Assembly (NCBI RefSeq): GCF_003991155.1
Contig: NZ_CP031293.1
Strand: one strand, 5' to 3'
DNA: 64,000 bases
Source: Escherichia coli
GTDB taxonomy: Bacteria; Pseudomonadota; Gammaproteobacteria; Enterobacterales; Enterobacteriaceae
In this document: positions 49,962 through 50,367 of the stretch, piece by piece
Layout of the letters: each line of letters begins with the position of its first letter
Numbering within the stretch: position 1 is the first letter of the stretch
Notes under the pieces: generated by a model
The model's input: only the letters and a program-made list of their open reading frames with translations
Databases searched by the model: none
What the model was told of the DNA's origin: nothing
Translations under genes and position numbers: made by a program

Positions 49962-50367
49962 GTATACCTTTATGTTCTCTCTGTCATATATTTCCATAAT
50001 AATTAACCACCAAACATCCATTTAATGAATAAATACAGTGCCATAAAGGCCCAAGTAATAAGCACACATTTAACCTGAAACATTATCATCGATGTCACCA
50101 AATCGTTTATTTAGTGAGATAAAAATAGCATGTTCGCAAGATAAAAAATGCACATAGCAATCAAGAAATAATATTATTACTTTTGATGTAAAACTATTTA
50201 GCTTTAAGAATAATTTTTTCAACATATAGAGCATTCATTTTATGAATGCAAAATAAACATGCCTGACACACAAACTATTCTCCTCTGTAATATTTTCTCA
50301 TTAACACTCTGTTTACCCAACATGCGCTCCGCACTACACTATGTGGGCATTTTTTTAAGAGGTGGTA

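Follow-up and report, generated by a model that had tools for sequence, protein, structure and literature searches.

The AT-rich divergent intergenic region between a Sel1-repeat pseudogene and yajR in an Escherichia coli accessory islet

In the 64-kb stretch of an Escherichia coli genome analyzed here (the window), a Sel1-repeat gene and yajR diverge from 406 bp of strikingly AT-rich DNA. How much of this DNA belongs to an acquired islet, which genes does it serve, and is it a target of H-NS silencing? We find that 49962-50367 is an ordinary AT-rich two-way promoter region of an accessory islet. Judged by its alignments, it is composite: 49962 to ~50285 (~320 bp) is islet DNA and 50286-50367 (~82 bp) is the yajR promoter, in an allele linked to the islet. 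We assign this reading as a whole a probability of about 0.72. The toxin-antitoxin half of the islet is already known; what is modestly new is the apparent origin of the region from a two-gene operon that lost its first gene, a yajR promoter delineated by phylogenetic footprinting, and the islet-linked, diverged yajR allele across Escherichia. Nothing in it is surprising to a specialist. The features of the locus are collected in Table 1.

Table 1. Features of the cyoE-yajR islet and its flanks, in window coordinates
Feature	Position	Strand	Basis or remark
cyoE terminator (hairpin and T-run)	48052..48081	+	Perfect 13-nt inverted repeat; kept in all aligned genera
Islet-specific DNA (itaRT promoter, itaR, itaT, Sel1 pseudogene, AT-rich upstream DNA)	48083..50285	none	Without K-12 counterpart
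itaRT promoter	48097..48170	+	TTGACA at 48119, 17-nt spacer, TAAATT; motif and repeat search
itaR, antitoxin of the TacA1/RHH family, 103 aa	48224..48535	+	Pfam PF08681, E = 1e-17; RefSeq DUF1778 protein
itaT, GNAT toxin, 180 aa	48519..49061	+	PDB 7BYY, E = 4.5e-114, full length
Sel1-repeat gene with signal-peptide-like N terminus, pseudogene	49117..49961	-	Pfam Sel1 PF08238, E = 9e-18; RefSeq "frameshifted"
AT-rich divergent intergenic region	49962..50367	none	Composition scan
Five-codon remnant ORF, ATG ACA GAG AGA ACA TAA	49970..49987	-	ATG (49987-49985) aligns to start codon of the 499-aa gene
Invariant blocks CTTATTAC (50062-50055) and TATTTATTCA (50035-50026)	50026..50062	-	Unchanged in 8/8 Escherichia versions; longest in the islet-specific part
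Alternative promoter-like site facing the Sel1 gene: TTGAAA, 18-nt spacer, AATAGT	50193..50222	-	Roughly kept only in the E. coli/E. albertii/MOD1 subgroup
Perfect palindrome GCATTCAT-TTT-ATGAATGC	50231..50249	none	Fold z-score -5.2 versus shuffles
AT-rich element TGTAATATTTTCTCATTAAC, just 5' of the yajR -35, UP-element position	50286..50305	+	Across Enterobacteriaceae; unchanged in all 8 islet versions from Escherichia
Inferred yajR core promoter: -35 TTTACC (50312-50317), 17-nt spacer, -10 TACACT (50335-50340)	50312..50340	+	Multi-genus alignment
yajR RBS, AAGAGGTGG	50357..50365	+	K-12-level identity restarts here
yajR, MFS transporter with YAM domain, 454 aa	50368..51732	+	Pfam MFS_1 and YajR_YAM; RefSeq

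Composition and boundaries of the islet

The intergenic stretch separates the start codons of the Sel1 gene (ATG at 49961, minus strand) and of yajR (ATG at 50368, plus strand). Its G+C content is 0.308 (30.8%), versus 0.515 across the window, and only 0.23% of all 406-bp segments of the 64 kb are this poor in G+C; the minimum of the window (0.276) falls within it, with runners-up at 0.335 and 0.337. A first-pass annotation, which had pointed to a very AT-rich divergent region of about 400 bp between the Sel1 gene and yajR, was thus exact in its coordinates, and the two A/T-rich strings that it quoted are found at ~50106-50130 and ~50168-50189. The islet-specific part (49962-50285) is 71.3% AT and also rich in TpA steps, with a density of 0.111 compared with 0.043 for the window (top 0.6%), and all 14 of its A/T-only runs of at least six bases contain TpA. 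Bases 47900-50600 are 100% identical to those of E. coli strain 2016C-3878.

The islet itself is ~2.2 kb long, with a G+C content of 0.424 (42%) in a 51% G+C genome. The cyoE stop codon lies at 48039, and the gap between cyoE and yajR measures 2328 bp here versus 148 bp in K-12. Among 5426 complete E. coli genomes, 1367 carry the islet and ~75% lack it. On the cyoE side, K-12 homology detected by blastn stops at 48082, immediately past the terminator; on the yajR side, it resumes weakly at ~50262-50282 and regains its normal level not before the yajR RBS. Because of this sequence divergence, the right limit of the islet-specific DNA is uncertain, and we place it tentatively within ~50262-50285. 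These boundaries now frame a common accessory islet, found in a quarter of complete genomes, BL21 and HS among them.

The first-pass annotation had proposed a comparison with the yajR upstream region of K-12, and its outcome is divided. The DNA from 49962 to ~50285 has no K-12 counterpart, whereas the last ~82 bp display a conserved promoter architecture and are not islet cargo. Since 50286-50367 corresponds to the yajR promoter, the islet-specific portion of the intergenic stretch ends at ~50285. Identity of the whole region with the K-12 sequence, which would have spoken against an insertion, is not observed, as most of the region is missing from K-12.

The yajR locus was retrieved from 80 species for a cross-genus comparison. 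A ~150-bp cyoE-yajR gap of the same architecture is common to many genera (Enterobacter, Citrobacter, Kosakonia, Buttiauxella, Pluralibacter, and others), and for this reason we rejected a reading of the "empty" K-12 site as the deletion scar of an ancestral islet. The terminator, AT element, -35, -10, and RBS of this ancestral Enterobacteriaceae region (~148 bp in K-12) are also present in the window (48052-48081 and 50286-50365), but there ~2.2 kb lie between the two halves, and the allele of the promoter half matches at 72%. Another seemingly empty site, that of strain TR01, results from a rare deletion of 48117-50299 (48116 joined to 50300, with a 2-bp microhomology at the junction) and was discarded as a true pre-insertion allele: it occurs in 2 of the 5426 genomes and severs the conserved yajR upstream element. 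It therefore represents a secondary loss of the islet, the contiguous element of the window being the original state.

Hallmarks of a mobile element were sought at both ends and in the gene content. The annotated islet genes are only itaR, itaT, and the Sel1 gene, with no recombinase gene among them, and in a repeat search neither a direct nor an inverted terminal repeat linked one end of the islet to the other. By its distribution, the islet is old and common to several Escherichia species, and not a recent acquisition.

The Sel1 gene and its upstream DNA

The Sel1 gene of the window is broken. RefSeq labels it as frameshifted in its annotation of the identical strain 2016C-3878, and, relative to the intact BL21 gene (311 aa), the open reading frame is interrupted by a 92-bp deletion at ~49428. 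Further changes at the lesion have produced a perfect 22-nt inverted repeat (49413-49434 / 49461-49482), and the lesion is found in 106 of 1366 islet-bearing genomes. The only strong Rfam match, to a plant miRNA (49405-49488), is an artefact of this repeat. Homologues of the protein are essentially confined to Escherichia; relatives at 58-62% occur in uncharacterised contigs and others at 36-43% in Salmonella and Affinibrenneria.

Other Escherichia lineages, for each of which one genome was compared when not E. coli, point to the origin of the AT-rich DNA. In E. albertii, a Sel1 gene sits at the same site behind a 410-bp upstream region of 32% G+C, with a different companion gene, and the companion is likewise different in MOD1-EC7003. 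In Escherichia sp. E4694, E4930, and CP057686, yajR diverges from a 499-aa Sel1 gene that is followed by the 311-aa Sel1 gene, and these face itaT, itaR, and cyoE, with itaRT lacking in E4930. The intergenic DNA of the window aligns at ~79% with the yajR-Sel1 intergenic region of these two-gene versions as far as the ATG of the 499-aa gene; the blastn match to one of the loci compared (L091) ends at that locus's ATG (1491-1493), equivalent to position 49985 of the window. The window continues with the five-codon remnant, and 8 nt separate this from the start codon of the 311-aa gene. The 499-aa gene was absent from every complete E. coli genome searched. The alignment up to the ATG of the 499-aa gene, together with the remnant, identifies the AT-rich DNA as the promoter region that originally served a two-gene operon. 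As far as these comparisons reach, its first gene is deleted in all E. coli versions, and the 311-aa gene now stands directly behind the region. The two-gene islets, including that of a Superficieibacter-like metagenome, match the window in how the genes are arranged with respect to yajR, cyoE, and itaRT and in the type of yajR allele, the difference being that the window retains only the five-codon remnant of the first gene. In the Superficieibacter-like version, the upstream DNA is of 46% G+C and cannot be aligned past the yajR promoter.

With one operon gene lost and the other a pseudogene in the carriers of the lesion, one may ask whether the region is an inert spacer, whose AT-richness reflects mutational drift in partly decayed non-coding DNA, the scar of the gene loss, and implies no particular part for nucleoid proteins, the Sel1 gene being expressed weakly or constitutively. 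In line with this, the intergenic DNA evolves slightly faster than the Sel1 coding sequence between species (83-85% versus 86-87% identity), and the region has no H-NS motif match. However, it can be aligned end to end across species with few indels, at 79-85% identity and with invariant blocks, and an AT content of 64-69% is kept in all versions, including those with an intact operon. DNA of this kind is, moreover, generally occupied by H-NS in E. coli. We regard inert decay as doubtful.

What the islet-specific part encodes was approached through its conservation. In an alignment of eight Escherichia versions, 49% of the columns are invariant. The two longest invariant blocks frame a weak -35 (TTACTT, 50058-50053) and, after a 17-nt spacer, a -10 (TATTTA, 50035-50030), which make up a candidate Sel1 promoter; a scan with consensus promoter motifs did not pick it up at 50026-50062. 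The alternative site at 50193..50222 is weak as well, and no strong sigma-70 promoter could be identified for the Sel1 gene. The palindrome at 50231-50249 is kept in E. coli, E. albertii, and MOD1-EC7003 and missing from the two-Sel1 versions; it is a possible regulator site. Consensus sites of ArgR, ArcA, RcsB, Fur, and Fis, compared by eye, gave no convincing fit to either the palindrome or the yajR upstream element.

The significant fold of this palindrome, two small open reading frames (54 aa at 50070-50234, minus strand; 40 aa at 50259-50381, plus strand), and two terminator-like sites, where 0.1 would be expected, could be taken as signs of a hidden gene, be it a small protein, a small RNA, or a cis-regulatory RNA. 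Yet no Rfam match is found inside 49962-50367 even at E <= 1, and the open reading frames were rejected as genes: indels of 2 nt (BL21) and 1 nt (MOD1, E. albertii) disrupt the 54-aa frame. One terminator-like hairpin (50328-50347) is not significant (z = -1.5) and overlaps the yajR -10, and the palindrome is not shared by the two-Sel1 versions. A gene hidden here is thus hardly credible. Since Rfam yields no match and indels break the small frames, we conclude that the AT-rich part is non-coding regulatory DNA.

H-NS prefers AT-rich, TpA-rich DNA, and DNA of such composition is usually bound by it in E. coli; a nucleation motif is not obligatory for binding. The first-pass annotation had read the composition of the region as that of a horizontally acquired, H-NS-bound promoter. 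The resemblance to accessory promoters under xenogeneic silencing is upheld in that TpA-rich, non-coding DNA of 71% AT precedes an accessory gene in a 42% G+C islet. There are also differences: the nucleation consensus TCGATAAATT has no match with up to two mismatches in 49962-50367 (the sole exact match within the 64 kb lies inside itaT, at 48628), the islet dates far back, and the gene to be silenced has become a pseudogene in this strain. On balance, the AT-rich part is probably bound by nucleoid proteins, with H-NS the most likely of them, and such binding would hold the weak Sel1 promoter low. The annotation's further prediction, silencing of the Sel1 gene, is without consequence in this strain because the gene is already broken. 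A literature search found no H-NS binding or expression data for the cyoE-yajR islet locus.

A related proposal invokes a "promoter island," a concept described for E. coli (PMC7054387), in which dense promoter-like sites trap RNA polymerase together with H-NS and silence the acquired gene. The location of AT-rich DNA next to an accessory gene would suit it, but promoter-like sites are not in excess: the region has 2, against 3.1 +/- 1.6 in its shuffles, and the whole islet 7, against 5.6. We consider a promoter island very improbable here. With the Sel1 gene a pseudogene, the live outputs of the two-way promoter region in this strain are yajR transcription and any effect that the adjoining AT-rich DNA has on it. 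The AT-rich DNA starts ~60 bp upstream of the predicted yajR transcription start site, and an effect on yajR is possible from this proximity.

The yajR promoter and its islet-linked allele

Across genera, the empty gap reads in a constant order: terminator, ~28 variable nt, GTAATATTTnnTnAnnAA, TTTACC, a 17-nt spacer, TACACT, ~20 nt, GAGGTGG, and the ATG. The conserved architecture, GTAATATTT...TTTACC-17-TACACT...GAGGTGG, is intact in the window at 50286-50367. The hexamers are near invariant across the aligned genera (1 of 22 sequences deviates) whereas the spacer diverges, a pattern that constitutes a phylogenetic footprint of the yajR promoter. By this footprint, 50312-50340 is the probable sigma-70 promoter of yajR, although the site scores 8/12, under the threshold of the promoter scan.

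Alleles of this promoter were compared over the 82 nt preceding the yajR ATG. The window is 72% identical to K-12 but 96-99% identical to BL21, MOD1-EC7003, E4694, E4930, CP057686, and a metagenomic E. coli-like contig (L092), and 87% identical to E. albertii. The top match outside Escherichia (80.5%) is to L087, a metagenomic scaffold that carries yajR (96% identical to that of Superficieibacter), Sel1 genes of 478 and 308 aa, a TacA gene, and cyoE; the others reach 72-78%. The K-12 allele also occurs in E. whittamii and Escherichia sp. E1V33, and its nearest relatives are those of Citrobacter and Salmonella. In BL21, the first 600 nt of yajR have a single mismatch to K-12, yet the promoter is of the islet type.

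These comparisons bear on the simplest account of the locus, namely that a K-12-like spacer received a foreign islet to which the full ~400 bp of AT-rich DNA belong, with the native yajR promoter left unchanged and the junction inside the stretch. K-12 indeed lacks 48083-50281, its homology weakly returns at ~50262-50282, and the flanks (~43 and 106 bp) come near the ancestral 148 bp. What such an insertion leaves unexplained is that identity to K-12 falls to 72% in the 82 nt nearest to yajR, right next to a nearly identical coding sequence, and that the islet-type allele is shared at 96-99% by E. coli and four Escherichia-lineage carriers (87% in E. albertii) and finds its nearest relative in an islet-bearing non-Escherichia genome. 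We deem this simple insertion unlikely. Since the promoter allele is both diverged and islet linked, the right-hand junction lies effectively at the yajR RBS and not inside the AT-rich DNA.

We infer that the exchangeable unit is bounded by the cyoE terminator and the yajR RBS (48083 to ~50357), so that the exchanged DNA takes in the yajR promoter. The islet and this promoter would have entered together and would now be spreading by homologous recombination, for which the cyoE terminator on one side and the yajR RBS and coding sequence on the other may serve as flanks. A xenologous origin of the promoter allele, arriving with the islet, seems somewhat favored, our confidence being tempered by the fact that the comparison covers 82 nt and that the margin of the best match is modest (80.5% versus 72-78%). 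Carriage of the islet might alter expression of a core gene, either through the swapped promoter allele or through nucleoid proteins spreading from the AT-rich neighbor.

In a more speculative and rather improbable extension, two deep cyoE-yajR haplotypes would coexist across Escherichia, one with the 148-bp empty gap and the other with the islet and its xenologous promoter; the islet would rewire yajR, and the toxin-antitoxin module would help to retain the haplotype. If this were true, rewiring would operate through a different spacer, discriminator, and 5' untranslated region, as well as an H-NS-prone AT-rich neighbor from near -60.

The itaRT end of the islet

At the opposite end of the islet from the region discussed here lies the itaRT module, whose antitoxin gene comes first and overlaps the toxin gene by 17 nt (48519-48535). 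Earlier work on E. coli HS and BL21(DE3) described the module, with BL21 locus tags ECD_00377-00378 (PMC6125619), and the structure 7BYY is that of ItaT (PMC7367177). With its toxin, TacA1-like antitoxin, and gene overlap, this type II toxin-antitoxin locus is the same as that of the window. In PMC6125619, searched for cyoE, yajR, and Sel1, and in PMC7367177, searched for genomic context, no account was found of where the module lies between cyoE and yajR, of its Sel1 neighbor, of the AT-rich DNA, or of the linked yajR promoter allele. The present analysis shows that a well-studied module is physically joined with the remains of a Sel1 operon.

A fragment upstream of itaRT has promoter activity that is repressed by ItaRT (PMC6125619). 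Two ATACGG-N7-CCGTAT palindromes, at 48097-48116 and 48152-48170, stand on either side of the itaRT -35 and -10 and are candidate ItaR or ItaRT operators, a by-product of this analysis along with the footprint-defined yajR promoter. The distant Superficieibacter-like locus L087 retains both palindromes but has a diverged sequence between them.

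Mosaic structure of the islet

The cyoE-side neighbors of the Sel1 gene vary by lineage. In E. coli, this position is occupied by itaRT, the ItaR antitoxin/ItaT GNAT toxin module, while the E. albertii companion encodes a protein without a match in a Pfam search and that of Escherichia sp. MOD1-EC7003 may, judged by eye, be M20 amidohydrolase-like. Since these companions are unlike between lineages, the islet is, by sequence comparison, a mosaic; the Sel1 gene together with the AT-rich region forms its constant part. Some Escherichia loci encode two Sel1 proteins, both with a signal-peptide-like N terminus and Sel1 repeats. 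By eye, they have in common a C-terminal region of ~130 aa, which matched no Pfam family when the shorter protein was searched, and they look like paralogues.

Inserts found in several genera mark the cyoE-yajR spacer as a hotspot for insertion. A 160-aa ORF of the Citrobacter cassettes, inspected by eye, resembles Hcp. The whole islet is deleted in E. coli O157:H7 TR01 (L004, 2926-3070), where window position 48116 is joined to 50300 at a junction with only 2 bp of microhomology. Deletion of this type is rare (2/5426 genomes); it retains the left palindrome of the itaRT promoter, a candidate operator, and takes out half of the conserved element upstream of yajR.

Features of the islet and of related yajR loci
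Feature	Sequence	Coordinates	Description
Two ATACGG-N7-CCGTAT palindromes	Window	48097-48170	Either side of itaRT promoter TTGACA-17-TAAATT
Perfect 22-nt inverted repeat	Window	49413-49434 / 49461-49482	At Sel1 lesion
Two-gene Sel1 loci	L089, L090, L091	1491-2990 and 3001-3939	499-aa and 311-aa proteins
E. albertii companion	L085	5048-6025	cyoE side of Sel1 gene; 325-aa protein
MOD1-EC7003 companion	L006	1664-2611	cyoE side of Sel1 gene; 315-aa ORF
Citrobacter spacer inserts	L008, L009, L014, L016, L021		1-1.6-kb cassettes, two or three small ORFs
Salmonella arizonae/diarizonae spacer insert	L011, L012		352-374-aa ORF
Further spacer inserts	L028, L067, L078		0.8 to 4.6 kb

The Sel1 pseudogene lesion

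Compared with BL21, 92 bp are deleted at the lesion (window 49405-49488), and base changes nearby have made a perfect inverted repeat out of an imperfect quasi-palindrome; the lesion looks like a template-switch event. The identical junction occurs in 106 of the 1366 genomes bearing the islet. An Rfam match to MIR5229 at this site (E = 9e-8) is an artefact of the inverted-repeat hairpin.

Control sequences and AT-rich DNA

The itaRT promoter palindromes are kept in a Superficieibacter-like locus (L087) despite diverged flanking sequence and are candidate ItaR/ItaRT operators. On the yajR side, BL21 carries a 9-bp tandem duplication of TCTGTAATA (about 2975-2995 in L003; window equivalent, 50283-50291) within the conserved element directly 5' of the yajR -35, which might change yajR expression in B strains.

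When the 64-kb window was searched for the H-NS high-affinity consensus TCGATAAATT, the AT-rich intergenic region contained no exact match, the sole one lying within itaT (48628-48637). After the intergenic region, AT content in the window is highest at about 13500-14100 (G+C, 0.335) and about 42700-43300 (G+C, 0.337), the latter being the upstream region of cyoA.
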